Shown here one piece after another: positions 10,217 to 29,748 of a stretch of 64,000 nt of DNA. Made by a program: the position numbers and the translations under genes. The first letter of the stretch is position 1. Each line of letters starts with the position of its first letter. This stretch comes from Bdellovibrionales bacterium (GTDB lineage Bacteria > Bdellovibrionota > UBA1018 > CAIMNF01): positions 295,669 to 359,668 of the forward strand of contig CANNBJ010000004.1 of the NCBI GenBank assembly GCA_947502835.1. The letters run 5' to 3'. The notes under the pieces were generated by a model, which made no database searches, was not told the origin of the DNA, and was given only the letters and a program-made list of their open reading frames with translations.

Positions 10217-11802
10217 ATCCGCCAAGGGCCAAGAGTCTTCAGTTTCCGAAAGTTCGAATCAAGAAAAGAAAAAGAAATCGGATGGTTCTGAAACGTTTCC
10301 TGCGAGCCGACGACAATGTATTCCGCTCCCAGCGATCTTGCTTGCTCCAGCGCATCCCCCGAGCCAAGAAGCACCGAGCCCACTTTTCGTTCCAGCAAGG
10401 TGTAGTTGATTCCCCAGCTCCAGAGCCAGCCGGGATATCCCATCACAACGGGATTTCCGGTGAGACAGGGAATCGGATGATTGTGAATCGGAGTGATGAG
10501 TACCCGTGCGTCGGGCGAGGAGCGCAGCTTCTTGAATTCGGAGGCAAGGTCTTGATCAAGCTCCGTGAACCAGACGGTTTTTTCAATCCCTTGCTGAAAC
10601 GACCAAAGATCGCGGGTGGCACTTGCACACTGGAGTGCGAGAAGGAGGAGGGCGGCGCTCCTCAAGGCACCCTGAAAGCGGTCAAGGAAAAGGCCGAAGA
10701 AGGGAGCAAAAAACAGGAAGGAATAGGTGAAGATTTTGAGATTGTCGTAGAAATAAGGCTGCACACAAAACAACAGAGCGACCAGAAACAAAAGAAAGCC
10801 CGCAAGGGCAAGGGACATGAGATTCCGGTTCCTCCGGGAAAGCACGATTTCAATGAACACAAGCGGCAGAAAAACCCCCGTATTGTAGATCCAGAACCAG
10901 AGGGGGTTCATGGATGCGGCAAGCGGTTGTCCGGCAGCCTCGTTTTGCGCCCATCCCGGGAGAAAGATCCTCCACTGGTGCGGAAACGGATTCGGACTTC
11001 GGAAAAGAAACCAGAGGCAAAGCGCACCGATCCCCCCGATCACCGCACCTCGGCCCACCACCTGTGCGCGATCCGTGAAGTCCCCGGAGTCTTTTCGCGG
11101 GAAGCAGAGCAATGCCAGTAGAAAAAACGGAATCGCGATGAAGCTGTGAAGGTGAACCAGAGGCAGAATTCCAAGCAGAAAGAGTGCGAGCCGCTTTGAG
11201 TGCTTGTTGCTTTTTCCCAGCAGTGTCCCTGTGCTCCAAAGCACGGCACACAATCCGAACAGAAAGGCCCGCTGGGGGTAGAGTTCAAAAAGGAGAAATG
11301 AGGTGAAAATCGATCCGTGTTCGAATTGATTGGTCAGGGGCTTTGCCGGATTCAGTGAGGAATCAAAAATCTGGAGACCCCCCATCAAGAGGAATCCCAG
11401 GGTCGAGTACAGGGAGGCCCGCGGAGAGAGGTTCCACTTTTGGAAAAAACGAAACAGGAGAAACGGGAGAAGAAACAGAAGCAGGGCAGAGGTGAACACC
11501 ATGCCGTGGATCGTTTGGATTCCGAGCCCCATCGAAAGGACGGCCGTGAGCAGATGACTTAAGAACGGGTAGCGGAAGGGAGCGTCCTGGAACAGGGGAT
11601 TCGGATCGAGGATCCAGGAAAGCCCCCGCTGCCGAAAGGCCTCCGTGAAGCTCAAATGGGCCGACCAATCCCCCCAGATCGAGAAACTCCCCACAAGAAG
11701 TCCCTCGCCATCGACGGAGTGGAACAAGGAAATGAAAACCAAAGTGATCCATGTCGCAAGCGAGAGCAGGAGGAGTGGAATTGGCTTAAAAAGCTGTTTC
11801 AT
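10189..11802 (-). CDS. polytopic integral membrane protein, possibly a GT-C-type glycosyltransferase
   Basis: 537 aa with more than 10 hydrophobic helices. Paired divergently, 29 bp apart, with another GT-C-like membrane protein. Confidence 0.5.
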   Translation of the reverse strand: MKQLFKPIPLLLLSLATWITLVFISLFHSVDGEGLLVGSFSIWGDWSAHLSFTEAFRQRGLSWILDPNPLFQDAPFRYPFLSHLLTAVLSMGLGIQTIHGMVFTSALLLFLLPFLLFRFFQKWNLSPRASLYSTLGFLLMGGLQIFDSSLNPAKPLTNQFEHGSIFTSFLLFELYPQRAFLFGLCAVLWSTGTLLGKSNKHSKRLALFLLGILPLVHLHSFIAIPFFLLALLCFPRKDSGDFTDRAQVVGRGAVIGGIGALCLWFLFRSPNPFPHQWRIFLPGWAQNEAAGQPLAASMNPLWFWIYNTGVFLPLVFIEIVLSRRNRNLMSLALAGFLLFLVALLFCVQPYFYDNLKIFTYSFLFFAPFFGLFLDRFQGALRSAALLLLALQCASATRDLWSFQQGIEKTVWFTELDQDLASEFKKLRSSPDARVLITPIHNHPIPCLTGNPVVMGYPGWLWSWGINYTLLERKVGSVLLGSGDALEQARSLGAEYIVVGSQETFQNHPISFSFLDSNFRKLKTLGPWRIYKVEPPLR

Positions 11803-13300: not shown

Positions 13301-14485
13301 TCACTCCCGGGTTGCCGCCTTCACAATTGCATCGAGCAGTGTCCAGTCGTCTTTGAAGTTTTTCGTGTCGCGCCCGAGCCCCTCCGGATCAAAAGCCTGT
13401 CTCCAGATGAAATCAGGATAGCTCGAGTCCTCGGCCCACTCTCCCCCGATGATGCGGTCTGCGGCGTTCAGCTCGAGAACATAGCGGTAGGTTGCCATTC
13501 CATAGTGCTGATTGCCGGGGCCAAGAGGTTCGTACCGGGGGGAAGCTGTCCGATCGTTTTCTTCGCCCGGTCCATGAGCGGAATAGAGTTCGTTGACGTA
13601 CCTGATGGTGGTTTCAAAGGAAAACTCCCGCACGGTTCCAGGCGTTTTGTCTTTTGAGAGGTCCCTGGTCTTCACTCCCGTGATTTTTGATTCAAAGCCG
13701 ACAACCGGATGATTCCACACCTGAAGCCCCGGGTCGCGGTCGATCGCGATTCCGCGTTTTCGAATCCCGATCTCGTTCGTCAGCGCGATGTGGAAGGCAC
13801 CCGCGTTGATGTCACTGCACCCGCCCGTTGCGTTCAGAAGAATGCGATCCTTCGCCCTGCACGCACGACCGATGTAGCCGTGAAAGGGATTCTTCGAAGG
13901 CTCGACTGTGCGGTCAAGATACGAGTAGTAGTAGGCAAGAAGGCCCTTGATGTCGCTTGAGCCGAAGGGAACCCGGATTCCATTTACAGGGGACGTGAAC
14001 AGGATGTTCTTCGGTTCATCGAAATGAAGCGAGGCATGGGTCCAGCCGTTGCAAAGACCCCGCCACCAATCACGATCGCCCGGGTTCTTCTTCCGGAAGA
14101 ACTTTGCCGTCGGAAAATCGAGTTTCCCGCGGACGATGTCGAATTTTTCGGCAGGAGACAGCAGGTTCAGTTGGCCCGGAGCCATCCGGTACACGGTTTC
14201 CGGTTTCGGCAGATCATAGTCCTTGAACTTGAAGGCAAGTGCCGGAACCTGCCAGCGATCCGCGATGTAGCCGCGTGTGGCAGGCCAATAGGAGTCGGAC
14301 CAGCCCTTGCGGGAGGAATCGAGGTTTCCAGAGAGGGGAAGAGAATTCAGGCTGTACACATAGTCAAGCTCAAGGTTCTTCGGATCATTCGCCTCATTCC
14401 AGTTTCGATCGGCGAGGGAGGTGAGCGGGATCAGGGTGAGTAGGATTCCGGGTGCAAAGAGATTTTTGAGAGTCCTGATTTTCAT
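13301..14485 (-). CDS. secreted hypothetical protein (394 aa)
   Basis: Signal peptide MKIRTLKNLFAPGILLTLIPLTSLA. No motif recognised with confidence; a GLCNGWTHAS segment is noted. Confidence 0.5.
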   Translation of the reverse strand: MKIRTLKNLFAPGILLTLIPLTSLADRNWNEANDPKNLELDYVYSLNSLPLSGNLDSSRKGWSDSYWPATRGYIADRWQVPALAFKFKDYDLPKPETVYRMAPGQLNLLSPAEKFDIVRGKLDFPTAKFFRKKNPGDRDWWRGLCNGWTHASLHFDEPKNILFTSPVNGIRVPFGSSDIKGLLAYYYSYLDRTVEPSKNPFHGYIGRACRAKDRILLNATGGCSDINAGAFHIALTNEIGIRKRGIAIDRDPGLQVWNHPVVGFESKITGVKTRDLSKDKTPGTVREFSFETTIRYVNELYSAHGPGEENDRTASPRYEPLGPGNQHYGMATYRYVLELNAADRIIGGEWAEDSSYPDFIWRQAFDPEGLGRDTKNFKDDWTLLDAIVKAATRE

Positions 14486-15350: not shown

Positions 15351-16376
15351 CTAGCTGCGAATTGTTTGAGAGTTTCGGATTCGCATGCTGATCTGTTTTC
15401 CGAGCTCGGCAAATGAGTTCATATTCAGAGGAAACTCAAGGAGCACATGAGTGAAGCTCAAGAATGCAAGCCACCTGAGTCCAAGGGAATAGCTCAACGA
15501 GTACAGGACCACCGAGGCCACCCAAAGAAGAACCACGAGCAGGATGCGTGCCCTGGAAACTTGATGCCAGCGGATGACTTCCGTTTTACTGAACCAGTTC
15601 AAGTAGTGATACATATAGGAAAATGAAATTAAGCGCATCAGCATGATTCCTGTCGCTGAACCAAAGAGTTGCTCGTTCACCTGCACAAGGGTGGGTTGGT
15701 TCGAGAAATCGGCATCAAAAACCCTTTGCAGAATGCTCAAGTTGAGTTGAAAAAAGCCGTCTCCTTCGCTGAAGTATGAATCCTTCCCGTACTCAGTTGC
15801 AGCGATGAACTGATGACCCTGAAAAAGCGTGCAAAGAAGCACAGGGCAGAGAAGAAAGACCGCAAATGAGATCATCCCCGACTTGCTTTTGGATTTGAGT
15901 GCGCCCACTAAAATAAAGACGCCTGTAAAAACAAATACGTGAATGAGAGTGGGGAGAAGAATGCTGGAAAGCCAAGTCAGGGTGTTGTCTTGATGATCGG
16001 TGAAAATCAGATTCGAAAAAAGGATCAGGAATACAAAGCCCAACGCTTTCATGGATGCATTGCGCACGAAAGCCATGAGTGCTGAGCCCGTAAATGCAAA
16101 GAAGATTGCCTTTGTGCTCATCAGAAGATGAAACCCCAGAGTGTCCAAAGTGATCAGGACCCCGACAGCCACCAAAACCAGGAAATCGTGTTTGGACTTC
16201 GTAAAATACTTCCGATCGTGAAGCCAGCTGATTTCGGTTAAGTAATGGAGCGGTCCCAAAACGGCATAGGCAAATAAAAACAATTCAAGAGGCATGATGA
16301 ACGCTGCAATCATGCTCAGGAGCATCATTCCTATGTTCAGTTGATTGATTCGGTCTAAATGAATGGGAGTACTCAC
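15351..16376 (-). CDS. polytopic membrane protein of unknown function, lying in a low-GC segment
   Basis: 341 aa with 8 or more hydrophobic helices. AT-richer than its surroundings. Confidence 0.5.
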   Translation of the reverse strand: MSTPIHLDRINQLNIGMMLLSMIAAFIMPLELFLFAYAVLGPLHYLTEISWLHDRKYFTKSKHDFLVLVAVGVLITLDTLGFHLLMSTKAIFFAFTGSALMAFVRNASMKALGFVFLILFSNLIFTDHQDNTLTWLSSILLPTLIHVFVFTGVFILVGALKSKSKSGMISFAVFLLCPVLLCTLFQGHQFIAATEYGKDSYFSEGDGFFQLNLSILQRVFDADFSNQPTLVQVNEQLFGSATGIMLMRLISFSYMYHYLNWFSKTEVIRWHQVSRARILLVVLLWVASVVLYSLSYSLGLRWLAFLSFTHVLLEFPLNMNSFAELGKQISMRIRNSQTIRS

Positions 16377-16515
16377 ACCGATAGGTTAGCACAACATGAA
16401 ATCACGTGTAGACCGTGCGCCACAACGCCAAAAACCCTATTTGCTCGTGATTGTGTCCTGAATGACCCAGTTGAGACTATTCGATTAGGAGAGTAGAATT
16501 GGGGAGGGAAAGGAC

Positions 16516-16935
16516 TTGAACATGAATCAGTTTTTCGTTGCATTGGGGGTACTGGTCGGAACAGCGTCTTTCGCCTGTCCATTGGGTTCCAATTGGTTGC
16601 CGCCCGGGGAGGTATTGGAGTCAGGATGTACGATCATTGCCGCCGGCAATGGTCAAGGGGGGTTTAGCCCGCCTTGGGCGCCTGGCACACTTTATTGCCC
16701 TCAAAGCGTCATGAGTGGTTCCGTCTCTTGTTATTATGTGAAAAAGTGCACGATTCCTGGAGTGGACTATTGCCTGAGAAAGGTTTTTCATCAAAACGGG
16801 ACGATTCAGGTTACCATGAATACACCGCTGGTTTGTCCGAGCGGATTGCACAAAGCGGTGGACAGGTCGGGCAGCACCGACAAATGCATCCGGATAACTG
16901 AAGTTAAGGCATCAGAAGGCGCTGCGATCCGATGA
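16516..16935 (+). CDS. small Cys-rich secreted protein (10 Cys in 139 aa)
   Basis: Signal peptide MNMNQFFVALGVLVGTASFA followed by regularly spaced Cys residues. Confidence 0.45.
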   Translation: MNMNQFFVALGVLVGTASFACPLGSNWLPPGEVLESGCTIIAAGNGQGGFSPPWAPGTLYCPQSVMSGSVSCYYVKKCTIPGVDYCLRKVFHQNGTIQVTMNTPLVCPSGLHKAVDRSGSTDKCIRITEVKASEGAAIR

Positions 16936-16942
16936 CGAGAGT

Positions 16943-17854
16943 CTAAAACCCGATCGAAAAACTGCCACCCACAATCGAAGTGTCGATCGAAGGCGACCAG
17001 AGCACCGACTGGACATAGCCGCCAAAGGAAACAAACAAAGGCGAAACATCGGGCGACCAGGTCAGGGTTCCGCGCGCGGTATCGGGAAGCGCCTCTCCAA
17101 GATGAAACAGGCCGTTTGGATTCGGTGAGCGATGCTCGACATTGAAACTTGCGGAGGCCCTGATACTCACGGTTCGTGAGATGTCGTACCCAAGATTCGG
17201 GCCGAAAGAAAAGAAAAGTGTCTGGCGGTCCGTGAATCCCTGAGGTAGGGGATCGTTGTAGAATTGTGGATTCAGAAACCATCCGAAGCCAAAATGAAAC
17301 GGGCTTTGCGTATTCACGTTCCAGCTCTGCTGAAGGATCAGGGATGTGATTTTTGCAGCATTGATCGAGGCAGGTCCGATCGGAAGGCTGAAGGATGCAC
17401 TCGTGAACACGAACCATCCGTCCACCCGGATCAGGTTCGGAAGGTCGAAGTACAGATACGGATCATACCACTCCGAGGTGCGTCCCCGGATGAATCCCGT
17501 GACGCCCATCACACCATCCGAGACATTCTGGACAATGTCGGCGCCCACTCCGATCTGAAGATCCTCGGTAGCCTGGTATCCGAACTTGAGCGAGTGGAAC
17601 AACTGAACCGGTGCCACATCCGGAATGAACACGTTGTAGGTTTCGATCGGACTGCCATTCAAGCGCGGTCCCATGTAGGAGACCGCGTAGGACCCATGGA
17701 AGTTCCGGAGGATTTCCCCGATCGAGGGAATGGTACCCGGAGCCTTGAAGGTTTGAAGATTGATGTCAGGTCTGTTTGAGCCACGTTGGGCCTGTCCCTG
17801 TGCGTCGAGGGAGACAAAAAGAGCGATCAGAGTGAGGAAAATCCGGGTCCGCAT
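16943..17854 (-). CDS. outer-membrane beta-barrel protein
   Basis: Signal peptide MRTRIFLTLIALFVSLDAQGQA. Alternating amphipathic strands. C-terminal ...GGSFSIGF ends in Phe. Confidence 0.6.
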   Translation of the reverse strand: MRTRIFLTLIALFVSLDAQGQAQRGSNRPDINLQTFKAPGTIPSIGEILRNFHGSYAVSYMGPRLNGSPIETYNVFIPDVAPVQLFHSLKFGYQATEDLQIGVGADIVQNVSDGVMGVTGFIRGRTSEWYDPYLYFDLPNLIRVDGWFVFTSASFSLPIGPASINAAKITSLILQQSWNVNTQSPFHFGFGWFLNPQFYNDPLPQGFTDRQTLFFSFGPNLGYDISRTVSIRASASFNVEHRSPNPNGLFHLGEALPDTARGTLTWSPDVSPLFVSFGGYVQSVLWSPSIDTSIVGGSFSIGF

Positions 17855-17866
17855 CGGACCCGGATC

Positions 17867-20059
17867 TTAAATGAGGTTTGCCTGTTTTAGGAGAGAATCC
17901 CTCTCGGCAAAAAAACTTTCAAGACCATCGATCAGGCGTTTTCGTTGAGATGCCTCGATGTCGTTCTTCAGGTGCTCTGCCAGTTCCTTCCGGATTGAGG
18001 TGAACTCGAGCACCATCATGTGGAAGAGCGCTTCATACTGGGAATCCATCTGGCGGAAGGAGGCGTTTGCCGTGAGTTTCGACCGCGCAAGGCCCTTTTT
18101 GAACTGCAGGGAGGTCAGCGACATTTCCTCGCGTTTTGTCGAGTAGAGCGACTGAAGCAGGTGAACGGTGTTCCGCACTGACCAGTTGTACATTTGAAGT
18201 CCGGAATTCGAAGCCTCTTGAGCATGGTTCTGAAGAAGGTACAAGATCTCCCACTGGCGCTTCATGTAGGTGCGAAGCTCAGCGGTATCCATCGAGTTGC
18301 GGCGCTCAAAAAGCTTAGAGTTGTTTTTCAAGCGGGCAAGGACGCTGCCGCCGGCCTTGAACTCGGAGTCGAATTTTTTGGCAAGAGCCATGATCCGCTC
18401 GTGTCCCGCGGGAAGCGCAAGACCTTTGGTGCGGTTTGCAAGGGTGGAGGTCATGTCGCGAAGAAGGATGAAGGAGCGACCCACATAATGATCCATCTGG
18501 GTTTGTTCGCCGGTTTCATCCATCATCGTGTACGGATGGTCCAGAATGAAGCGGATGTTCCGGTCCCAAAGATAAAGCTGCACTTCCTCTGCGCGCAGTT
18601 TCTCTTTCTCCGCAAAGCGAATGAACGCCGGATCATACTCCTTTTCATTGGCTTTCAGGAAGTTCAGGAACTGGAGATAGCGTTCGGTCTCAAGCCAGGT
18701 GCTCTCGACGATGAGAGGCCAGTTGAGCTGGGTTTCCATCTGCTCGAGTCGCCCAAACCGGGGCGCAATTTCGAGATTTCCCTCATAGGCGATCTGCATC
18801 GCCTTGAATTGACTCATCCGATCCTCCCAGCTCTGGGAGGCGACTTCACGTCGATCCGAGGAGAGGGGCATGCCGGAAACCGGGGTGTTGGCGGAAGGGC
18901 CTGATCCGCTTGCGGGAGCCGGCACCGAGGCGGGTGTTTCGTGTTTCTTTTCGGTCGATTCCGGAGTGGGTGTCACAGCGTCCACGGAGGCGCCACTCAC
19001 GGCTGCTCCACCGATCAGGGTTTTTACTTTATCGGTGGTTTCGATGTACGCGGAGCGAACTTTTCCGACCGCCCACATCGCGTGGGGGTTCATGGGTTGA
19101 GTGATGAAAAAGAAGGTGAAGGGGCTGTAAATGGCCAATGCAACGGAGTAGCCCATGTTCCCGCGAACGACCTTGAAGAACCAACGGACCGGGTCAAGCA
19201 ACACGCGCTCCACGAGTCCCAGCAAATTGCTGAGCGGACGAACCTTGAAGCGGGAAAGCGCGTTTCGGGCATCGGATGCGAGAAGGGGAAGCGTGTAACT
19301 CACGAAGCGGCTCCTGTGCGCGCGCTTTTTGGTCGCGATCAGGGTTTTTCGTTCTCCCTTGATCCTTGCAAAAATGGTCTGACGCTCGCGCCACGTGTAT
19401 ACCGGATCGCGCTCGAGGGTGAGAAGAGACTCGTTCAAACGCAGGATGGCGGGATCCCGCGCGCGAAGGTTGAAGGAGAGGGCCGATCCGCGTGTGAGTT
19501 CGAGGCGTTTCAGGATTCGCTCGATGGTGTGGAGGAGTGTCGTGTTGGCAGTCCCCTCCATGGTCTTCGGGTACTCGACCGATGCGACATTGTAGAGAAA
19601 GTTCACGATCGGGCAGGCGGTCTCAAACACAAGGGAAGGGATGATTTCAAAGCTTCGTGTGCTCGGGCCTTCGCTGAACGCGAACCGGCCGTCGGCGGTG
19701 AAGTGGTGGGTGATCCAGGAAGAGGATCCGTCCAGCATCAACGCTTGCACCATCCAGTGCCCGGAGGTGGTGAGTCCCACCCTGACATACGCGAGCATTT
19801 TCGCGCCCAGGGAATAATTGAAGCCTGCAGTGCCCTCGCTCCTCATCACGGGGAGTGCGTGGATCTGTGAAGAAACCAGAGCCGTTCCTCCGTCAAGGGC
19901 GATTGCGGAAATCATTTCCTCGAAGGTGCGTGCGGGGCGCACGAGAAAGCCTCTCAGCTCCTCCATGCATTGCTCCCTCCGGGAGGGGAGGTTGACCAGT
20001 CGGGGGGGCTGGGTCTGGCTCACGGGTGCGGTTCCTGGTGTGGTGCCGTTCATCTTCAA
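17867..20059 (-). CDS. 730-aa hypothetical protein with a central hydrophobic segment; cotranscribed downstream of the protein-glutaminase-like gene
   Basis: Its stop overlaps the start of the upstream gene by 4 bp (20056-20059). Central segment MGYSVALAIYSPFTFFFI looks like a TM helix. C-terminal half looks helical/coiled-coil. Confidence 0.5.
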   Translation of the reverse strand: MKMNGTTPGTAPVSQTQPPRLVNLPSRREQCMEELRGFLVRPARTFEEMISAIALDGGTALVSSQIHALPVMRSEGTAGFNYSLGAKMLAYVRVGLTTSGHWMVQALMLDGSSSWITHHFTADGRFAFSEGPSTRSFEIIPSLVFETACPIVNFLYNVASVEYPKTMEGTANTTLLHTIERILKRLELTRGSALSFNLRARDPAILRLNESLLTLERDPVYTWRERQTIFARIKGERKTLIATKKRAHRSRFVSYTLPLLASDARNALSRFKVRPLSNLLGLVERVLLDPVRWFFKVVRGNMGYSVALAIYSPFTFFFITQPMNPHAMWAVGKVRSAYIETTDKVKTLIGGAAVSGASVDAVTPTPESTEKKHETPASVPAPASGSGPSANTPVSGMPLSSDRREVASQSWEDRMSQFKAMQIAYEGNLEIAPRFGRLEQMETQLNWPLIVESTWLETERYLQFLNFLKANEKEYDPAFIRFAEKEKLRAEEVQLYLWDRNIRFILDHPYTMMDETGEQTQMDHYVGRSFILLRDMTSTLANRTKGLALPAGHERIMALAKKFDSEFKAGGSVLARLKNNSKLFERRNSMDTAELRTYMKRQWEILYLLQNHAQEASNSGLQMYNWSVRNTVHLLQSLYSTKREEMSLTSLQFKKGLARSKLTANASFRQMDSQYEALFHMMVLEFTSIRKELAEHLKNDIEASQRKRLIDGLESFFAERDSLLKQANLI

Positions 20060-20799
20060 TCCCCCTTCAGGCCTTTCATCATGTTCTCAAGGTCGCCCGG
20101 TCTCCACGAGGTTCGAATGCGAAGGCCCGGGTCGTACCAGTTCGATCCGATGGACCCCGATTGTCCCGTGCGATCGCGCTCGAAATCGATCGGCGAGTAA
20201 TTGAACATCGGTGTTTTCATCACGAAGCAGTAATTGAGCTCCTGGTGGTTGAGGTACTCTTCATAGGTCTCGATCAGGGGGCATTCGGTTTTCGGAAAAA
20301 TGAAGTAGCGGGTCCACTGCGCAATGCTGATCGGACGGGAGTCAAAGCGCTTGATGTCCTCGGGACGCACCCATGAGGGAGGTGAAACAAACACCGGATC
20401 GAACACGCGCTCTTCGACCGAACCGTCGGCAAGTCGCACCGGAATGAGGGGGGCGACATGAAAGGACCATTGGTAGTCGAACTCGCGGCGGTAGCGATCC
20501 GTGAAGAACAAAAAGACCTTCATGCTTCGGATCCCGATGTTGCTGAACAGCTCATGCGACCAGTAGTGGGCCCGCTGGTAGCAACCCGATCTTCGGGTGA
20601 AGATCGAGGTGGGCATCATGTTGTAAAGGTTCTTCGCGCTCTCTTCGCTTGCAAGAAGTGAAGGTTGAAAGCCCCGGATCGACCGGTTGGCCGAGTAGGG
20701 TACCGGGAGTTCCCGGTCGGCGAGCGTCACTTGCGCGCGGGCCTGGCTCAGGAGCGAGAGGGTCAGGAGGGAGGCTGTGAGAAGGGGCTTCAACATCAT
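20056..20799 (-). CDS. secreted protein-glutamine glutaminase-like (transglutaminase-fold Cys-His-Asp) enzyme
   Basis: Signal peptide MMLKPLLTASLLTLSLLSQARAQ. Motifs SGCYQRAHYW, WSFHVAPLI and ERVFDPVFVSPP parallel the GCYARAH / WSYHVAILV / IIDPSLFS triad region I recall for Chryseobacterium protein-glutaminase. Confidence 0.55.
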   Translation of the reverse strand: MMLKPLLTASLLTLSLLSQARAQVTLADRELPVPYSANRSIRGFQPSLLASEESAKNLYNMMPTSIFTRRSGCYQRAHYWSHELFSNIGIRSMKVFLFFTDRYRREFDYQWSFHVAPLIPVRLADGSVEERVFDPVFVSPPSWVRPEDIKRFDSRPISIAQWTRYFIFPKTECPLIETYEEYLNHQELNYCFVMKTPMFNYSPIDFERDRTGQSGSIGSNWYDPGLRIRTSWRPGDLENMMKGLKGD

Positions 20800-20974
20800 G
20801 AGGAGTGGATTAAACTGAAACCGTGTAATGTGTCAATAAATTTTGTTTAATTAAATGGAAATGATTCATTCTGGATTTTTTCCGGGTCTTCGGGCATGGT
20901 CCGGGATCCGGGCGGATGGGGGAGAAAAAGATTGATTAAAAAGGTCAAATCTTCTACTCTCCCGAAAGCGCAAC

Positions 20975-23900
20975 TTGCGAGTAAACCACACGGGAGATTT
21001 TGCACGGGTGTTGGCCAATCGATTGCTTCCTGTCAGATCCAAATTGAAACCCAAGGCGAGTTCCTCGCGCCCGGTGGATCGGGCCGCATACGAACCGAAC
21101 AAGGGCTTCATTGGAAAATACGAGGTCAGTGTCGCGAACTATCTTTTCCGCTCGAAGGGGCGAAGCGGTTACCTGCATTCGCAGTCGCTTGTGGATGCCC
21201 TCCTCGGGCGCACCATTCAGGATCATCACCAGTCGAGCCAGCGCCTCACCCGGTTTCTGAAAAAGCGTGATCTCACGTTTCAGAAAACCGACAAGGACGG
21301 GGTGTACCGGATCTTCACCGTTCCTGTGACGACCTCCGTGGTTCCTCTTCCAAAGTCGGTCTTCAACTCCATCGAACACGCGGCACAGGTGCTGATGGTT
21401 TCGCTCAGGATGGTGCTTCAGAGCATTTACGGGGCAAAGTCGATCCGGGAGAGCGAGTTTGTGAACTCCCTGCCGGCTGAAGTCCGCCAGGCCTTTCTCG
21501 ATGCAACCGAGAACTCGCCCCACTACATTCCCCAACTGCACCACGAGAACATGAAGTCCTACCCGTTCCTCGACAATGTCGGACTCGATCTGGTCTTGGT
21601 CGAGGAGTATTTCCAGAATCGGGGGAAGTTGAGCCAGATGGTGCTTCAGGGGCGGGCACATGAGCTTCCGGAGCTGCCATTCAAGGTTCTTGAGCTGAAT
21701 GCCGGCTCGCCCTCGGGAGCATCCAACAATTCAAACATTCTCGAGGGGATCCTGCGCGAAGACCCTGAGGTCCTTGATGCTCTCGGACCTGTGTTTCCGA
21801 ACGATCATTTCCGCGTGTTGCGCGAAACCTATCGATCCTTGGGTGAGTCCTGGACCGGACGCAAGGATGGAATTCAGGTGCTTCTGCCGCCGGGCGGGGC
21901 CAATGGAGCCGCTCCCGAGATCCACCAGCTCGCGGCCTATTCGGGACTCGTGTACTGCGATCCGGGCCAATTGTTTCAGGATCCGGAAGGGTGGATCCGG
22001 CTTCGCACGGTGGATGGCACCGATCCGGTCGTCACCTCGATTTATTCACGGGTGAACAGCGACAGTGCGCTCTTTGATCGCGAAAAGGGCGTATTGCTTC
22101 GCGACCCTGAAAGCGGCGAATCCATTTATTGCGTCGATGTGCTGAAGCCCTGGAAGTCCTCCGACCCCGAGTTTCTCCAGGATGACAAAGGCAACCCGGT
22201 TCCACTCGAGTCCGATTACGCCATCCCGGGCGCCCTGGATGCCATCGTTCATCGCAAACTTTACATGGGAGGTTTGAACCGACTTCTCGACAACAAGATC
22301 ATTCTCGCGACACTTACGGATTTCGCCCCCGAGTATTTCAGAAGCGAGCTGGAAACGCTCGGGCTTCGCATCGGTTCCAATCGGATCACTCCTCCGGAGT
22401 GCCTCCCCTCCAAGGAGGATTCTCTCGACATCATTGAACGGAATCCCGAAGACTGGGTGATCAAGGCCCCGAATCTCTCGGGCGGAACCGGGGTCCACAT
22501 CCTGATGACCCTGGACGAAAAAAAGCAACGCGAAGTCATCAAGGAGGCCCGTCGCAATCCCGAGCAGTTCGCCTACCAGAAGGTTGTGAAGATCGCGCGG
22601 ATTCCGGTGGCGGTCCGAAGCGGGGGAAAAGCCGGGTTCCGGTTTGCGAATCTTGCCGCCGACATCCGCATGTGGGTGTTTTTCGGCGGCAACGACACGC
22701 TTCCGAGGCTCACGCACAATGCCCTTGTCCGGTATGCGCCAAAAGAAAAAGGCCCGATGAGTTCGATCGTGAACACTTCGAAGGGCGGCGGATACGCTCC
22801 TTTCGTTGTGGTCGATGATCTTGGTGATCCCTCTGCGATTCCCGCGCGGGAACTTGCAACTCCCCATGAGCCCGCTCCGTTTCAGTGCGCACTGCCTGCC
22901 TTTGTCGGGGCCCAGCTCGTGCAAGTTGCGAACATCATCCATGAACTCAGAAAGCTCGTGCGGCAACAGAATCCCGAGACCCATCGGGTTTCAGGGTACC
23001 TCTACTCCCTCAAGCTCCAGGTTCGTGAAATCACCTCCTTCATCCACCCCCGTTGCATGGAGACGATCTACAGCATGATCGAACTCATCGAGAAGCGGAT
23101 CGATCGGAAGGCCATTGCCAGCTATTACGCCCGGATGAACCAGGATCAGGCGCGGTTGGTGTCCTTGCTCCAGTCCCTCGACAACGTCCTTGATGAGGAT
23201 GTGTACATGGTGCTCGACGAGATGAATGTCCTGAACCAGGACATCGTGAATCGCGGGTACAGCTATGAAATGAAGCGGAGCGATCTCTTCAATCTCGGGC
23301 ACCTGAGTTTTCTCCTTCGCCACAAGATCAGCATGCATCCGGAAGAACGCCGGAATCTGAACCGCATTCGGGCCCTGATCAAGGGAATGATTCTTGCCCG
23401 CTTTCCCGCGCGCGGGCTTGCGTTCCTGCTTCGCCAGCGTTTTGAGTCGCTCCTCGACCAGTTTTGTGAGCTTGCCACCAAGCGCCTTCGCGACTCGGTT
23501 CATGCCAGGGGGTTCGCCACACTCTTTGACGGGTCGGTTGAGCAAAGTCAAACCCTGTACCGGGAAACCTTCGTGATCGCGCACGAGGGCCAAGCGCCCC
23601 GATCGGCAACCGAGTGGGAATTGAAGAACGAGAAGCGTCTCGTGGATTCGGACTTCATCGATCCGGAGATCCGCGCCATACGGAGTGAGTGGCTCCGTGT
23701 GATCGAGGAAGCAAAATCGGTGTCGAAGGAAAAACGCGGCAACTTCATTGCCGAGGCGCGAAAGAGGCATTTTTCAAGACATCCAAGGCTCACCGAACTT
23801 CAGAGCATCATCAATCGGCGGGAGAATTCGGACGTTCACTCGCTCATTGCGCTCATGAGCGTGCTCCCGTACGCAGCCTACAATCTTCGTCAGTATGCGA

Positions 23901-24790
23901 TTGATGAGGGAGTCTCCTTTGTCGATCTGTTTTGCGACACCCTGACCCCGAACCGGATCTCGATACTCGATCGGCATGCCCGCAGCCGTGAAAAACTCAA
24001 TCTCGATCAGTTTGCGGGTGAGTGTTTTGCGCGCAAGAAAACCCCGCACGGACTCATTTCGGATGGCGATCGATTCATGTGGATTTCAAAGGAGCAGAGT
24101 CCGCTCGTACAGCTCTATACGATCGGACACGAGTTGATTCATTCCTTCCAGATCGGCGAGGTGATGGAGAACGAGGCTGTGGCACGACGAGCGGGCTCGG
24201 TGGAGTTCGCAGGGTTTCTGAACCATTACGGAAACTTTCTTTCGCTTGCGGCACACACCCTTGAAAAACAACAGTCCGATGTCGCAGCTTATCGGCTTCC
24301 TCTGTACGGACTCGCGGATCGGATCGTGACCCAATTTTTCTCTCCCGTGATCGCGGACATCCGGGAAGGCCTTGCGGGCAGTACCGGCACCTATCACAAG
24401 AGGCTCGACAAGTATGGATCCCTCTTCGGATACATGATGCCGGTGTCCAATGTGGTTCGGGTGAAGGCACTCCGCGAGGTGGTTCCCGCGCTTGAGAATG
24501 CGAAGAATATTCTTTTTGCCAAGGAGTGCGGTCTTGAGATTCCGTTTGATGAGGTCCGGTCCGCATTGCCGACCGCAAACCGCGTGCAGGCGAACCGGTA
24601 CCGCGCGCTGATCACCGGTGCTGCGCAAAGCTGGAAACAGGACTTTGAGGCGCTCCGGGTGATTGCCTCGCATCAGTACTACGGAGTGATGTTCCATCGC
24701 GCAGAGGATGACCGCGAGAACCTTACGATCGAGTCTGATCCCGCGGCGATTTACCTGAACAACGGCTACAACCAGACGGAACAGCAGTAA
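20975..24790 (+). CDS. 1271-aa fusion protein: circularly permuted ATP-grasp (type 2) amidoligase domain, alpha-E-like helical domain, and C-terminal region with HExxH zincin motif; non-ATG start (TTG at 20975) likely
   Basis: CP-ATP-grasp signature stretches WVIKAPNLSGGTGVHILMT (about 22457) and MWVFFGGNDTLPRLTHNALVRY...SSIVNTSKGGGYAPFVVVDD (about 22670-22820). Long helical region at 22.9-23.9 kb. TIGHELIHSF at about 24121-24150. Confidence 0.6.
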   Translation: MRVNHTGDFARVLANRLLPVRSKLKPKASSSRPVDRAAYEPNKGFIGKYEVSVANYLFRSKGRSGYLHSQSLVDALLGRTIQDHHQSSQRLTRFLKKRDLTFQKTDKDGVYRIFTVPVTTSVVPLPKSVFNSIEHAAQVLMVSLRMVLQSIYGAKSIRESEFVNSLPAEVRQAFLDATENSPHYIPQLHHENMKSYPFLDNVGLDLVLVEEYFQNRGKLSQMVLQGRAHELPELPFKVLELNAGSPSGASNNSNILEGILREDPEVLDALGPVFPNDHFRVLRETYRSLGESWTGRKDGIQVLLPPGGANGAAPEIHQLAAYSGLVYCDPGQLFQDPEGWIRLRTVDGTDPVVTSIYSRVNSDSALFDREKGVLLRDPESGESIYCVDVLKPWKSSDPEFLQDDKGNPVPLESDYAIPGALDAIVHRKLYMGGLNRLLDNKIILATLTDFAPEYFRSELETLGLRIGSNRITPPECLPSKEDSLDIIERNPEDWVIKAPNLSGGTGVHILMTLDEKKQREVIKEARRNPEQFAYQKVVKIARIPVAVRSGGKAGFRFANLAADIRMWVFFGGNDTLPRLTHNALVRYAPKEKGPMSSIVNTSKGGGYAPFVVVDDLGDPSAIPARELATPHEPAPFQCALPAFVGAQLVQVANIIHELRKLVRQQNPETHRVSGYLYSLKLQVREITSFIHPRCMETIYSMIELIEKRIDRKAIASYYARMNQDQARLVSLLQSLDNVLDEDVYMVLDEMNVLNQDIVNRGYSYEMKRSDLFNLGHLSFLLRHKISMHPEERRNLNRIRALIKGMILARFPARGLAFLLRQRFESLLDQFCELATKRLRDSVHARGFATLFDGSVEQSQTLYRETFVIAHEGQAPRSATEWELKNEKRLVDSDFIDPEIRAIRSEWLRVIEEAKSVSKEKRGNFIAEARKRHFSRHPRLTELQSIINRRENSDVHSLIALMSVLPYAAYNLRQYAIDEGVSFVDLFCDTLTPNRISILDRHARSREKLNLDQFAGECFARKKTPHGLISDGDRFMWISKEQSPLVQLYTIGHELIHSFQIGEVMENEAVARRAGSVEFAGFLNHYGNFLSLAAHTLEKQQSDVAAYRLPLYGLADRIVTQFFSPVIADIREGLAGSTGTYHKRLDKYGSLFGYMMPVSNVVRVKALREVVPALENAKNILFAKECGLEIPFDEVRSALPTANRVQANRYRALITGAAQSWKQDFEALRVIASHQYYGVMFHRAEDDRENLTIESDPAAIYLNNGYNQTEQQ

Positions 24791-27029: not shown

Positions 27030-29648
27030 TCAGCTTTCTGCAAGGAGACTCTTCAGGTCGCCTGCGGTAAGCGCCCCTTCTCCGAGTGCCAGTTTCTGTG
27101 CTTGTAGCTCTCCCATTCTCTCCTCGATCGAACCCTCGACCCTGAATCGATGAATCGTGACGGGCTTTTCCTGACCCATCCGATAGGCGCGATCCTCGGC
27201 CTGGAGTTCGACAAAGGGATTCCACCAGGGCTCACAGAAAATCACATGGCTTGCGCGGGTGAGATTGAGTCCGACCCCTCCGGCATGGAGCGAAAGCAGA
27301 AACACACTTGGGCGGTCTGAATCCTGAAACCTGCTGGTGACATCGCCTCTGTCTTTGGTTGAGCCATCGAGCCGTTGATACGGGAGGGAGTGCGCGCTCA
27401 CCCGTGTCTCGAGCAAATCAAGGAATGCGGTCCATTGGGAGTAGACGAGTACGGAATGTCCCGCATCCAGAAGGTCGGAGACCAGCGCAAGGATTGCCTC
27501 GAGTTTGGTGGAAGACGGAACAGAGCCGGTTCCGGCTGCCTGCTTGGCGCCGTTTTCTCCGGCGAAAAGCCCCTCGTGATTGCAGGCCTGACGTGCGCGC
27601 AGGAGTACCTCAAAGAGCGTGAGCGGCGACAGGGGTTCTCCCGCCTCCAGGATGCGAGCAAGGACCTCCTGTTTTGCCGCATCGAACACGGAGCGATAAA
27701 GCTTTGATTCGCCTTCCGTAAAGGAAACCGAATGCACAAGGTGGGTCTTGGGAGGGAGTTCTGTCAGGACCTCGGCTTTGGTCCGTCGCAAAAAGAAAGG
27801 TCTGCTGGTTTTCAGGTCGAGAGCTTCTTCATCATCAAAAAGCCCCGGAGAAACGAACTGAAACAAACTCCAAAGATCCCGCATGCGGTTTTGAATCGGC
27901 GTACCGGTAAGGGCGAGTCTGAAATCGGCAGTGAGGGTGCTTGTTGCGATCGCCGCCCGGGTTTCGGGATTCCGGATGATGTGAGCCTCGTCGAGCACCG
28001 CGATTTTCCAATGGATGCGCGCGAACCGTTCGGCCTCGGTTCCGAGCAGAGAGTAGGAAGTAAGAACCACATCGGCCTTGTCGTCCAATGTGCGCCCGGC
28101 CCCGTGGTATATGGATACTTTGAGCTCGGGACGGAACCGTGCCGCTTCTGCTTTCCAGTTTTGAAGAAGCGAGACCGGAACCACGATCAGAGAGGGGGAT
28201 TCGAGCACTGCAAGTGTCTGGAGGGTTTTTCCAAGCCCCATGTCGTCAGCCAGAATTGCGCCTCCAAGGCGCATCCATCGATCAAAGAGCCAGTTCACCC
28301 CCTCGTGTTGATAGGGCCGAAGCTTTCCCTGAAGTGATTTTGGAATCGCCGGCAGAAAGGAACCCTGTCCGGGGGGATTCGGGGATGTTCTTGCGAGCGA
28401 GGCCAGAAGCGCTCCGGTTTTTTGCCTCGTCTTCGGATTTCGCTCCCTCAGGCGGAGGAGTTTCAGGATGCTCCCGGATTCTGAAATCGCATCCTGGAGG
28501 GGGAGCTTGAACTCCCCAGCAAGCCAGCTTGAAAGTGCCGACTCGATTTCCGGAAACCGGTGCGAGTTTTTTGTGGCGTGGAGGCGAAAGAGTTCGGAGG
28601 CGGCGAGTGTTCTGGGGTGCCCCGGGTTCAGCTGAAACTGCTCGCGAGCAACATGGCTGAGTTCAGCCTCCTTTTTCGGATCGCGGATCGTGAGTGCACC
28701 GGCGGGCGCCTCATAGTGGATCCTGAGGGTTGCCGAAAATTGGTCCTCTGAAATCGGATGAAGGGTCAATTTCAATTCCGGTTCCACTTCGATGACAGAC
28801 GGGAAAAGTTCCTTGAGGTCCGGAAATTTCATCAAGAGAGAGGTTTCAAGATCGAGGCGTGAAAATCTCTTCGGAACCGCTGCAGGCTCATCAAAGCCGT
28901 AACCCAAAACGCCGTTTTCGATCCAAAGGCCTCCTTGAAGAATCTCAACTCCGGGTTCGCGAGTGAATTCAAGGGTCCATTCGTCTTTGGAGATCTCTCG
29001 AAGCGCGGGTTTGGGGCGTCGGGGAAGACGCTGGACCCGGAGAGTGGGGACGGAGGGGTGCCCGACCACCGGAAGCGGCGGCAGGTCGGTGAGTGCCAGA
29101 AGGACTTCCCGCCATTCGGGAGAGTCCGACGAATAGAGGCCATCAATTTTCAGGTCAACCGGTGAAAGAGCTGGAAGCGGACCCTCAAGCCTCCCGCTTT
29201 GTACGCCTCCCACCCATGCCACCAGTGAGGAGGGCAGGGGGATCTCCTCGTTCCCCTTTTTTAACGCGCGCTTTAGCTGCACTCGAGCAGGCTTTCCAGA
29301 ATCGTTTCCGAGATAAATCCATGAGTACTCGAGTCGCACGCTCGCGCTTTGGCTTTCCTCCGACTTCGAGTCCAGTGTTCCGTTCTCAAGGGCAAGAGCT
29401 GCGGCAACAATGTGGTGACAAGGTTCCACTTTGCTGCCACAATTGCAGTGGGCATCCTGATCTTCTGGCCAGAGGGTGACCTCGAATGCCAGGATCCGCT
29501 CTGCAGTGGTCACTTTGAAACGGAGTTCCTCCGAGACTCCTTCGGGGGAGGTTTTCCTGATTGAATTCAAAACGCGCGATGCTTGCACCCCCTTCGACCA
29601 GACTCCCGGCAGACACTCTTCCTTCAGGCTTTCGATAAATTTTTTCAT
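27030..29648 (-). CDS. SNF2-family helicase/ATPase with N-terminal SWIM zinc finger; start set at internal Met44 to avoid overlapping the divergent phoH2 start
   Basis: SWIM CxC...CxH: AHCNCGSKVEPCHHI. SNF2 motifs LADDMGLGKT (Walker A-like), DEAH box in VLDEAHIIRN, and helicase C motifs. ORF track lists 27030..29777. Confidence 0.75.
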   Translation of the reverse strand: MKKFIESLKEECLPGVWSKGVQASRVLNSIRKTSPEGVSEELRFKVTTAERILAFEVTLWPEDQDAHCNCGSKVEPCHHIVAAALALENGTLDSKSEESQSASVRLEYSWIYLGNDSGKPARVQLKRALKKGNEEIPLPSSLVAWVGGVQSGRLEGPLPALSPVDLKIDGLYSSDSPEWREVLLALTDLPPLPVVGHPSVPTLRVQRLPRRPKPALREISKDEWTLEFTREPGVEILQGGLWIENGVLGYGFDEPAAVPKRFSRLDLETSLLMKFPDLKELFPSVIEVEPELKLTLHPISEDQFSATLRIHYEAPAGALTIRDPKKEAELSHVAREQFQLNPGHPRTLAASELFRLHATKNSHRFPEIESALSSWLAGEFKLPLQDAISESGSILKLLRLRERNPKTRQKTGALLASLARTSPNPPGQGSFLPAIPKSLQGKLRPYQHEGVNWLFDRWMRLGGAILADDMGLGKTLQTLAVLESPSLIVVPVSLLQNWKAEAARFRPELKVSIYHGAGRTLDDKADVVLTSYSLLGTEAERFARIHWKIAVLDEAHIIRNPETRAAIATSTLTADFRLALTGTPIQNRMRDLWSLFQFVSPGLFDDEEALDLKTSRPFFLRRTKAEVLTELPPKTHLVHSVSFTEGESKLYRSVFDAAKQEVLARILEAGEPLSPLTLFEVLLRARQACNHEGLFAGENGAKQAAGTGSVPSSTKLEAILALVSDLLDAGHSVLVYSQWTAFLDLLETRVSAHSLPYQRLDGSTKDRGDVTSRFQDSDRPSVFLLSLHAGGVGLNLTRASHVIFCEPWWNPFVELQAEDRAYRMGQEKPVTIHRFRVEGSIEERMGELQAQKLALGEGALTAGDLKSLLAES

Positions 29649-29748
29649 CGTGATGTTTTTGACTCGCGCGCCACACATCCTATGATACTTTTTAGGCAAG
29701 AGGGAGCGCTTTTTCACAACTCTCTCGAAGCCGGAAAAGGAGCACATC

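Follow-up and report, generated by a model that had tools for sequence, protein, structure and literature searches.

A divergent protein-glutaminase-like gene in a conserved Bdellovibrionota gene cluster encodes a predicted exported glutamine amidohydrolase

Introduction

What is known of protein-glutaminases (EC 3.5.1.44) comes almost entirely from a few Bacteroidota, whose enzymes are used in the food industry. To our knowledge, the physiological role of protein-glutaminases is essentially unstudied; our literature searches returned nothing on such a role and nothing relevant on Bdellovibrio together with a deamidase or a transglutaminase. On the level of gene neighbourhoods, the closest described systems are the operons of circularly permuted ATP-grasp, alpha-E and transglutaminase-like peptidase genes that were reportedly delineated by Iyer, Aravind and co-workers in 2009. 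The characterised protein-glutaminases (Chryseobacterium proteolyticum, PDB 2ZK9 and 3A54; Flavobacterium FBPG, PDB 8Z3I) are zymogens whose active site is shielded by a pro-peptide of ~114 aa, and in the Chryseobacterium-type precursor ~176 residues precede the catalytic Cys (signal peptide, 114-aa pro-peptide and 41 mature residues). Their catalytic triad is numbered Cys156, His197 and Asp217 (PMC4214742; numbering also from PMC13298967). Another Cys-His-Asp glutamine amidase of the same fold is NTAQ1, the N-terminal glutamine amidohydrolase of human and mouse, whose nearest structural neighbour is protein-glutaminase (PMC4214742).

Here we describe a protein-glutaminase-like (PG-like) gene and its surroundings in a stretch of 64,000 nucleotides from an uncultured Bdellovibrionales bacterium, which is referred to as the window.

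Results

The PG-like protein is a member of the protein-glutaminase family

The gene and the features of its product are as follows.

20056..20799, minus strand: PG-like gene, 247-aa precursor, ATG start
20734..20799, minus strand: signal peptide, aa 1-22, predicted cleavage ARA/Q, assigned from sequence features by inspection
20581..20583, minus strand: codon of Cys73, the predicted nucleophile, aligned with Cys42 (mature numbering) or Cys156 (pro numbering); conserved in 183/183 relatives
20458..20460, minus strand: codon of His114 in the motif W-S-F-H, aligned with His83/His197; conserved in 183/183 relatives
20398..20400, minus strand: codon of Asp134, aligned with Asp103/Asp217; conserved in 181/183 relatives, with gaps in the other two

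A sequence-only reading of this DNA had proposed a secreted protein-glutaminase-like enzyme at 20056-20799. The span proved exact, and the frame lies on the minus strand, which had not been stated. The strings quoted in support of a Cys-His-Asp motif are all present in the translation, namely RRSGCYQRAHYW (aa 69-80), DYQWSFHVAPLIPV (aa 108-121) and EERVFDPVFVSPP (aa 129-141). The frame is a real, conserved gene, with 26 full-length homologs, 1,028 family representatives and a dN/dS of 0.08-0.09.

The proposed homology was confirmed on the level of both sequence and predicted fold. An HMM alignment, suggested as a check, matched aa 70-140 to Pfam PF18626 (Gln_deamidase_2) with E=1.3e-10 and 41.8 bits, above the gathering cutoff of 25, and this domain is present in 26/26 homologs. 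In a phmmer search of the PDB, sequence hits were obtained to protein-glutaminases only (2zk9/3a54, E=8e-5 to 2e-4). Cys73, His114 and Asp134 align in sequence with the protein-glutaminase triad at identical spacing (+41/+61), so that the earlier assignment of the three motif neighbourhoods holds; Trp111 is likewise found in 183/183 relatives. Structure prediction, another suggested check, yielded an AF2 model with a pLDDT of 89.9, for which Foldseek returned only six matches at E<=1e-3, all of them protein-glutaminases. The predicted structure thus has a papain/transglutaminase-like fold of the protein-glutaminase type. The TM-scores of the matches are modest (0.35-0.48), and regions outside the core therefore differ. 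The next Foldseek match, the N-terminal glutamine amidase hNTAQ1, is marginal (E ~0.6, TM 0.23). By these sequence and fold matches, the gene product is a protein-glutaminase family member with a complete predicted Cys73-His114-Asp134 triad. From the alignment together with the fold match we infer that the triad is also equivalent in three dimensions.

The signal peptide of the earlier reading was borne out as well. In the N-terminus MMLKPLLTASLLTLSLLSQARA/Q, a basic n-region is followed by a hydrophobic core, with a Kyte-Doolittle value of 2.1 over 12 residues, and by a c-region with an A-x-A site, and a small-x-small-Q/E/G cleavage pattern is conserved in 24/26 PG-like homologs. These features support Sec-type export and predict a mature protein of 225 aa and 26.6 kDa (Q23-D247). 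Cys173 and Cys191, which are kept in 181-182 of the 183 relatives, would fit an extracytoplasmic disulfide.

The PG-like protein is a divergent short form

With the characterised protein-glutaminases the PG-like protein shares PF18626, the core fold, the triad spacing, export by a signal peptide and the motifs GCYxRAH, WxYH/WxFH and (I/V)xDP, but the identity is only ~26% over ~135 aligned residues. The match to the NCBIfam equivalog model NF040782 reaches 28.6 bits, far short of the cutoff of 250, and is confined to profile positions 175-244 of 321. Judged by these scores, the protein is neither an ortholog of the Chryseobacterium enzyme nor an equivalog. The pro-peptide is missing as well: Cys73 has just 72 residues in front of it, and as 22 of these make up the signal peptide, ~50 are left between the cleavage site and Cys73. 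The last ~100 residues, which contain the conserved Cys173/Cys191 pair, diverge from the characterised enzymes. Moreover, the gene comes from Bdellovibrionota instead of Bacteroidota and lies in a conserved operon.

The closest relatives in sequence are long-form PG-like proteins of Bdellovibrionota (270-320 aa, 29-37% identity; e.g. P0026 and the copies at loci L013-L022, L025 and L054). They share the triad, the Cys pair and the signal peptide with the window protein, which represents a minority short form among its relatives, and some of them adjoin the same gene module. They differ by a conserved N-terminal extension of ~90 aa at the position of the protein-glutaminase pro-peptide. This extension has no detectable similarity to the protein-glutaminase pro-region, and the NCBIfam protein-glutaminase model matched only their catalytic part. 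A database search with a protein-glutaminase fragment returned two truncated Chryseobacterium-type proteins only.

The PG-like gene is the first gene of a conserved operon

Around the gene, the following further elements of the proposed transcription unit were assigned.

20809..20836, minus strand: promoter-like element TTGACA-16 nt-TTTAAT, 3' end 9 nt before the PG-like ATG
17867..20053, minus strand: 728-aa gene; N-terminal alpha/beta domain, hydrophobic motif, low-complexity linker and C-terminal helical domain
16943..17854, minus strand: 303-aa gene, third in the operon; signal peptide, Gln-containing N-terminal tail and a body ending in ...SFSIGF

Of the promoter-like element, TTGAC and TTTA.T are kept at the loci L006 and L007. 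A scan for consensus promoters and terminators found nothing above shuffled expectation; the element was not listed because position 2 of its -10 hexamer is a T. No Shine-Dalgarno sequence is present upstream of the PG-like ATG.

The sequence-only reading had deduced a functional unit with a downstream 730-aa gene from a 4-bp overlap of stop and start codons. A TTG at 20059 does share four bases with the PG-like TGA (20058-20056). However, the start of the downstream gene is more likely the ATG at 20053, which lies 2 nt past the PG-like stop, is preceded by GGGGGA and opens a frame of 728 aa. P0027, a homolog with 98% identity, and most of its cluster are on record with this same length. The overlap is also not conserved, the gap between the two genes ranging from ~1 to 121 nt in other genomes. 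It thus lends no support to a functional unit, and the part of the claim that stands is carried by gene order at orthologous loci: PG-like, 728 aa and 303 aa follow each other in all loci of the window clade with upstream sequence, except L035, and the 303-aa gene is conserved 3' of the 728-aa gene. This order supports the PG-like gene as the first gene of an operon with the other two. Since the region from glmS to PMT is wholly syntenic across the window clade, little can be concluded from adjacency in this clade by itself.

The 728-aa protein has at least 186 homologs, contains an invariant hydrophobic motif at aa 299-335 and corresponds to no Pfam family. The 303-aa protein has no PDB or Pfam matches; its signal peptide and C-terminal motif suggest that it may be an outer-membrane beta-barrel-like protein. 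The GC content is uniform at ~0.56, and a horizontally acquired island is not supported. A reading of the locus as a defence system was rejected, as PADLOC gave zero hits.

The operon belongs to a module that recurs across Bdellovibrionota

Two further genes of the window belong to this neighbourhood.

20975..24790, plus strand: giant gene, divergent from the operon, up to 1,271 aa; PF14403 (E=1.3e-14) and PF04174 (E=1.1e-5)
24128..24142, plus strand: zincin-like HExxH of the giant protein, codons H1052-E-L-I-H1056, assigned from its invariance among 35 homologs
13301..14485, minus strand: secreted GP42-type transglutaminase-like gene, 394 aa, PF16683 (E=4.7e-25)

The true start of the giant protein is probably ~34 codons in. 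Of its ~1,250 aa, the N-terminal half is a circularly permuted ATP-grasp ligase (PDB match 3n6x, glutathionylspermidine-synthase-like, E=3e-6), followed by a C-terminal domain with the HExxH motif, in which H1052, E1053, H1056 and E1067 are invariant in the 35 homologs. The transglutaminase-like gene is syntenic at L001, L003, L004, L009, L010, L027, L029, L030, L032 and L033. Like GP42 of Phytophthora and its Vibrio homologs (PF16683, PDB 3TW5), the transglutaminase-like neighbours of the module are secreted members of this family. The unusual 'CH' motif of GP42 persists in the long paralogs as WEGICHGW, whereas the short ones have C-N or C-D. The window copy is one of the latter, with Asn in place of the His (G-L-C143-N-G-W), and may be non-catalytic. 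A literature search found no link between the PF16683 family and any protein-glutaminase.

For an analysis beyond the window clade, the 728-aa homologs were clustered at 70% identity, each of the 42 clusters being taken as one lineage, and co-occurrence was counted in those 26 lineages that had 8 kb or more of flanking sequence. The companions of the 728-aa family across Bdellovibrionota are the ATP-grasp/HExxH, outer-membrane-like, GP42-type and PG-like genes. The ATP-grasp gene is adjacent in 24/26 lineages, a transglutaminase-like gene is found by the module in 13/26, a PG-like gene in 9/26 (none nearby in the remaining 17/26) and both of the latter in 7/26. Even if a chance of 5% per window is assumed, the binomial probability of the co-occurrence of PG-like gene and module is <=3e-6. 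The PG-like gene takes three different positions relative to the module, and in a rough neighbour-joining tree the module-linked copies are interspersed with stand-alone paralogs, many of which lie off the module. A toxin-immunity reading with the 728-aa protein as the immunity factor was rejected, because the 728-aa family goes with the ATP-grasp gene and in most cases has no PG-like gene beside it.

The outer-membrane-like protein of the module often has a Gln-rich N-terminal tail. Its median Gln content is 11% where transglutaminase-like or PG-like genes are present versus 4.5% where they are not (Mann-Whitney P=5e-4, kinship between lineages being ignored). The tail of the window 303-aa protein is only mildly Gln-rich (4/37 residues).

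As in the Iyer/Aravind operons, a circularly permuted ATP-grasp ligase, here the PF14403 and PF04174 giant, is linked to Cys enzymes of the papain/transglutaminase fold. Unlike in those operons, the Cys enzymes of the module belong to PF18626 and PF16683 and are exported, the ligase, at ~1,250 aa, carries an HExxH domain at its C-terminus, and the ~700-aa and outer-membrane-like partners are peculiar to the Bdellovibrionota module. Pfam searches of the giant protein, of the 728-aa protein and of the neighbours gave no match to alpha-E (PF04168) or Transglut_core (PF01841), even with the threshold relaxed to E<=10.

Discussion

By analogy with the characterised family, we infer that the PG-like protein has deamidase activity, and we consider it probable that it acts as a periplasmic or surface glutamine amidohydrolase which edits envelope proteins of the module. 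In such a reaction, His114, oriented by Asp134, would activate the thiolate of Cys73, which would attack the gamma-carboxamide of a peptide-bound glutamine. Ammonia would depart to leave a gamma-glutamyl thioester, and water would resolve the latter to glutamate. As there is no pro-peptide of ~114 aa, folding in the periplasm should suffice to yield an active enzyme. Its substrates would be envelope proteins of the module, the best candidate being the Gln-rich N-terminal tail of the outer-membrane-like protein. Conversion of tail Gln to Glu, or hydrolysis of gamma-glutamyl isopeptides, could limit or reverse cross-linking of the transglutaminase type, in a putative interplay with the transglutaminase-like proteins. 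As no signal peptides or strong transmembrane segments were found in the ATP-grasp and 728-aa proteins, their direct biochemical link to an exported enzyme is unexplained.

The same deamidase chemistry could instead serve a stand-alone digestive or attack secretome, in which prey or environmental proteins are loosened and solubilised for proteases and the neighbouring genes are unrelated. The Chryseobacterium protein-glutaminase is an extracellular enzyme of a proteolytic bacterium. Most PG-like paralogs stand alone, the family is multi-copy (two loci in one MAG, two copies in L019), and the PG-like gene at L025 adjoins a secreted papain-family peptidase. The genome matches all fall into predatory lineages (Bdellovibrionales, Oligoflexia, Bacteriovoracaceae, Halobacteriovoraceae and Micavibrio), but the scan used patterns of the window clade and the taxonomic spread is biased accordingly. 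Chance would hardly place PG-like genes next to the ATP-grasp/728 module so repeatedly and in three arrangements, and the coupling to the 728-aa gene is tight in the window clade. We regard a secretome role as unlikely.

A more far-reaching version of envelope editing would be a so far undescribed Bdellovibrionota system of envelope cross-linking. With the Gln-rich periplasmic tail of the outer-membrane beta-barrel serving as acyl donor, secreted GP42-type proteins would form gamma-glutamyl isopeptide links, for which a second envelope protein or amines of the cell wall are conceivable partners. The PG-like enzyme would be the dedicated antagonist, capping Gln as Glu or hydrolysing the links, and the cytoplasmic giant ATP-grasp/HExxH and 700-aa proteins would form the conserved core. 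In this complete form, the proposal is speculative and rather improbable.

Very unlikely, in our view, is that the same Cys-His-Asp machinery catalyzes another reaction, either as a transglutaminase or as a cysteine endopeptidase or isopeptidase after the manner of LapG. In the LapA adhesin system, LapG (PDB 4FGO) is the periplasmic Cys protease that cleaves an outer-membrane-anchored protein in its periplasmic tail. It is a peptidase and not an amidase, and its resemblance to the PG-like structure is much weaker than that of protein-glutaminase. NTAQ1, although an amidase, is cytosolic and specific for N-terminal Gln, unlike the exported PG-like protein.

The persistent adjacency to an amide-forming ATP-grasp ligase and the periplasmic location could also point to a non-protein substrate. 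The amide hydrolysed, gamma-glutamyl or iso-glutaminyl, would then be part of the stem peptides of peptidoglycan or of an exported product of the ligase, either a small molecule or a polymer. Bdellovibrionota are known for extensive cell-wall remodelling enzymes. On the other hand, the module contains no recognisable transporter, no transmembrane helix is predicted for the 728-aa protein, Pfam identified no peptidoglycan-binding domain, and the nearest characterised relatives act on protein- or peptide-bound Gln, which makes such a substrate a remote prospect. Finally, a chance frame or an inactive, degenerate relic is effectively refuted by the 26 full-length homologs and 1,028 family representatives, the dN/dS of 0.08, the invariant triad and the confident structure model.

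The conserved genomic context ties an enzyme of the protein-glutaminase type both to transglutaminase-like neighbours and to an outer-membrane-like protein whose tail is rich in Gln, which should make a cellular role of such enzymes experimentally approachable. The five-component cluster itself, built around the giant ATP-grasp/HExxH fusion, is uncharacterised and widespread in Bdellovibrionota. Should the link prove merely syntenic, the PG-like gene would still be a divergent new source of protein-deamidating enzymes, given its predicted activity, and as a natural short form free of a pro-peptide it could be expressed more simply than the zymogen forms.

The gene and its export signal

An open reading frame with an ATG start occupies exactly 20056..20799 on the minus strand and encodes 247 aa. 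The three peptide strings from which the sequence-only reading had proposed a secreted protein-glutaminase (PG) were found at aa 69-80, 108-121 and 129-141 of this PG-like protein. This is a real gene: public assemblies hold the exact protein and close copies, annotated as 'hypothetical protein', and its dN/dS is 0.08-0.09 in comparison with two orthologs of 82-83% identity. The signal peptide claimed before is supported by sequence features, as the N-terminus (MMLKPLLTASLLTLSLLSQARA followed by QV) is organised into n, h and c regions like a Sec signal peptide, the small-x-small-Q/E/G pattern for its putative cleavage is present at the same place in 24 of 26 homologs, and no lipobox cysteine was found in this N-terminus. 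The predicted mature protein comprises Q23-D247.

A promoter-like TTGACA-16 nt-TTTAAT element at 20800-20840 (minus strand) ends 9 nt before the ATG, which is not preceded by a Shine-Dalgarno sequence. Together with the retention of the element in the orthologous loci L006 and L007, this suggests a leaderless or near-leaderless transcript. The intergenic region contains a ~37-nt insertion relative to the same two loci.

Family assignment and predicted active site

Pfam PF18626 (Gln_deamidase_2) matched aa 70-140 with 41.8 bits (cutoff 25, E=1.3e-10), and only protein-glutaminases (2zk9, 2ksv, 3a54, 3a56; E=8e-5 to 2e-4) were recovered by phmmer from all PDB sequences. In the phmmer alignment, S71-G-C73 is placed on D-G-C42 of PG (Cys156 in pro-enzyme numbering), W111-S-F-H114 on W-S-Y-H83 (His197) and V-F-D134-P on I-I-D103-P (Asp217), the residues of the PG catalytic triad (PMC4214742, PMC13298967); the triad spacing of +41/+61 is the same in both proteins. 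Among 1.84 billion cluster representatives, 1,028 relatives were recovered by profile search, 435 of them at E<=1e-10. Cys73, His114 and Trp111 are invariant in 183 aligned sequences, and Asp134 is found in 181. Another pair of cysteines, C173 and C191, occurs in 181-182 of the 183 and would fit an extracytoplasmic disulfide.

AlphaFold2, given 26 homologs, produced a confident model (pLDDT 89.9, pTM 0.85). Foldseek returned six matches to it at E<=1e-3, all of them protein-glutaminases (probability 1.00, TM 0.35-0.48); the next match, the glutamine amidase hNTAQ1, followed at E ~0.6. Thus, the HMM alignment and the structure prediction that had been named as checks both point to the PG family, the predicted Cys-His-Asp neighbourhoods align with those of PG, and the observation and family call of the sequence-only reading are correct. 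An exported Gln amidohydrolase is the best-supported reading; a less likely rival is that the triad serves a peptidase, isopeptidase or transglutaminase.

Differences from characterised protein-glutaminases

With the equivalog model NF040782 the PG-like protein scored 28.6 bits (cutoff 250), over the catalytic core only; it is not an equivalog of the Chryseobacterium enzyme. In characterised protein-glutaminases, a pro-peptide of ~114 residues shields the active site (PMC13298967). The distance from the signal-peptide site to Cys73 is ~50 residues in the PG-like protein, compared to 41 in the mature Chryseobacterium enzyme, which leaves no space for a pro-peptide. The gene encodes a known kind of enzyme in a new version that lacks the pro-peptide. 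The 183 aligned sequences are bimodal: a minority 'short form', to which the window's clade belongs, has 57-80 residues ahead of the Cys, and the majority 'long form' has 100-160, including a conserved extension of ~90 aa. No relation of this extension to the PG pro-region was detected with the NCBIfam PG model or in a database search with a PG fragment.

Operon structure and neighbouring proteins

20056-20799, minus strand, PG-like gene
17867-20053, minus strand, 728-aa gene
16943-17854, minus strand, 303-aa gene, outer-membrane-like
20975-24790, plus strand, ATP-grasp gene (1,271 aa)
24128-24142, plus strand, HExxH motif in the ATP-grasp gene

A functional unit with the downstream gene, then counted as 730 aa, had been deduced from a 4-base stop/start overlap. 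This overlap requires TTG at 20059 as the start of the downstream gene. An ATG at 20053, 2 nt past the PG-like TGA and with GGGGGA ahead of it, gives 728 aa, the length recorded for a homolog of 98% identity and for most members of its cluster, and the gap in other genomes varies from about 1 to 121 nt. The overlap is therefore not the evidence for a unit; what stands of the claim is the conserved gene order. At every orthologous locus examined (L001-L004, L006-L012, L027-L030, L032, L033 and one further contig), the PG-like gene is followed on one strand by genes of about 700-730 and about 300-330 aa, divergent from a gene for ~1,250 aa. The exception is L035, which keeps the divergent layout and lacks the PG-like gene. 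Within the window's clade gene order alone is weak evidence, since synteny extends over the entire glmS...PMT region.

The 1,271-aa protein contains circularly permuted ATP-grasp domains (aa 235-590; PF14403, PF04174) and matches the glutathionylspermidine-synthase-like structure 3n6x. Its C-terminal region of ~650 aa gave no Pfam match; an HExxH motif there (H1052, E1053, H1056) and E1067 are invariant in 35 homologs, which suggests a ligase fused to a putative zincin-like metallopeptidase. Both this protein and the 728-aa protein lack signal peptides and strong transmembrane segments and would be cytoplasmic. The best-conserved stretch of the 728-aa family, aa 299-335 (GYSVALAIYxPFTFYFITQPMNPHAMWAVGKVR), is moderately hydrophobic, lies under the usual transmembrane threshold, is modelled with pLDDT <50 and precedes a linker rich in Pro, Ser and Ala; it may serve to contact the membrane or to bind a partner.

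A ~1.6-kb segment (15351-16935) separates the 303-aa gene from an RsmB/F methyltransferase gene. It is missing in the close relative L007 and in L001 and L003, where the flanking genes abut. Two ordinary genes, unrelated to the PG-like finding, lie just past glmS (27030-31098).

15351-16376, minus strand, multi-pass membrane protein, 341 aa
16516-16935, plus strand, Cys-rich ORF with signal peptide, 139 aa
27030-29777, minus strand, SWIM-zinc-finger SNF2 helicase
29749-31098, plus strand, PIN-PhoH fusion

A recurring module in Bdellovibrionota

The main interest of the PG-like gene lies in the conserved, uncharacterised Bdellovibrionota module around it, on which we found nothing in the literature. 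The 728-aa family, in which no Pfam domain was found, served as anchor: at least 186 homologs, with 60 further metagenomic loci added, fell into 42 lineages at 70% identity, and neighbours were counted in those 26 lineages for which 8 kb or more of flanking sequence was available.

Neighbours of the 728-aa gene (number of lineages out of 26; assignments Pfam-confirmed for a sample only)
ATP-grasp gene: 24
Homolog of the 303-aa protein detectable by BLAST: 16
Transglutaminase-like genes of GP42 type (PF16683), frequently in twos or threes: 13
PF18626 PG-like gene: 9
Transglutaminase-like and PG-like genes together: 7

The PG-like gene takes three positions. In the window's clade it leads the 728-aa operon; in L025 and L036, and as a second copy in L082, it diverges from an operon of ATP-grasp, 728-aa and outer-membrane-like genes; and in L054, L062, L068 and L082 it and a transglutaminase-like gene form a divergent pair just past the outer-membrane-like gene. 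Its presence in 9 of 26 lineages corresponds to P ~3e-6 under an assumed null rate of 5% chance per window. As 17 of the 26 lineages have the module without a PG-like gene close by, this gene is accessory to the module and not part of its core. No module genes were found near the stand-alone paralogs at L013-L024, and module-linked copies are mixed among stand-alone paralogs in a rough neighbour-joining tree without bootstrap. A free-standing deamidase with a predatory or digestive role is a further, less likely reading.

Candidate substrate and proposed mechanism

Because the neighbourhood recurs, we infer that the substrates of the PG-like enzyme belong to the module; a non-protein amide is the rival reading. 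The outer-membrane-like protein offers the most concrete candidate, its Gln-rich tail. The 303-aa protein has a signal peptide, and its body ends in ...SFSIGF (...DFSVRF in relatives), resembling in sequence an outer-membrane beta-barrel signal. The N-terminal tail of the family, compared between the window's protein and homologs in L025-L084, is variable and of low complexity. At loci with transglutaminase-like or PG-like genes it is Gln/Asn-rich with a median of 5 Gln (11%; e.g. QSNDQALQNMQSNNSSNAALAQASGANQTYQSSNTGQVLQIGMPQKSLGRR in L054), compared to 1.5 Gln (4.5%) at loci without them (one-sided Mann-Whitney P=5e-4, 19 vs 6 loci, uncorrected for phylogeny). L044 likewise has a Q-rich tail. 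The window's own tail, which includes QGQAQRGSNRPDINLQTFKAPGT, has 4 Gln in 37 residues, vs 4.4% in the body.

Acting as a periplasmic or surface amidohydrolase, the PG-like enzyme would need no zymogen processing to be active. Cys73 would form a gamma-glutamyl thioester, ammonia would depart, and water would convert the thioester to Glu. The resulting loss or reversal of Gln-based acyl-donor sites could counter the transglutaminase-like proteins.

Transglutaminase-like genes and other PG-like contexts

Secreted PF16683 GP42-type genes occur in the window and in L040, L054, L059, L082 and others, often as two or three tandem paralogs past the module. GP42 uses a C-H motif (PMC10318531), which long paralogs of ~555 aa keep (WEGICHGW); short ones of ~400 aa have C-N or C-D instead. 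The window's short copy (13301-14485, minus strand) reads G-L-C-N-G-W, with C-N in place of the C-H of GP42.

In the distant lineage L025 (2051-4025), a long-form module-linked PG-like gene adjoins genes for a CAP-domain protein and for a secreted peptidase of the papain family (PF00112); past the module come a DUF2126 gene and genes for PLP-dependent enzymes. In L024, a Rhodospirillales MAG (8835-11070), PG-like ORFs that lack signal peptides form a tandem array in which small ORFs of ~128 aa lie between them; one of the PG-like ORFs is apparently broken over two frames. The layout resembles polymorphic toxin/immunity cassettes and puts the fold to a quite different use.
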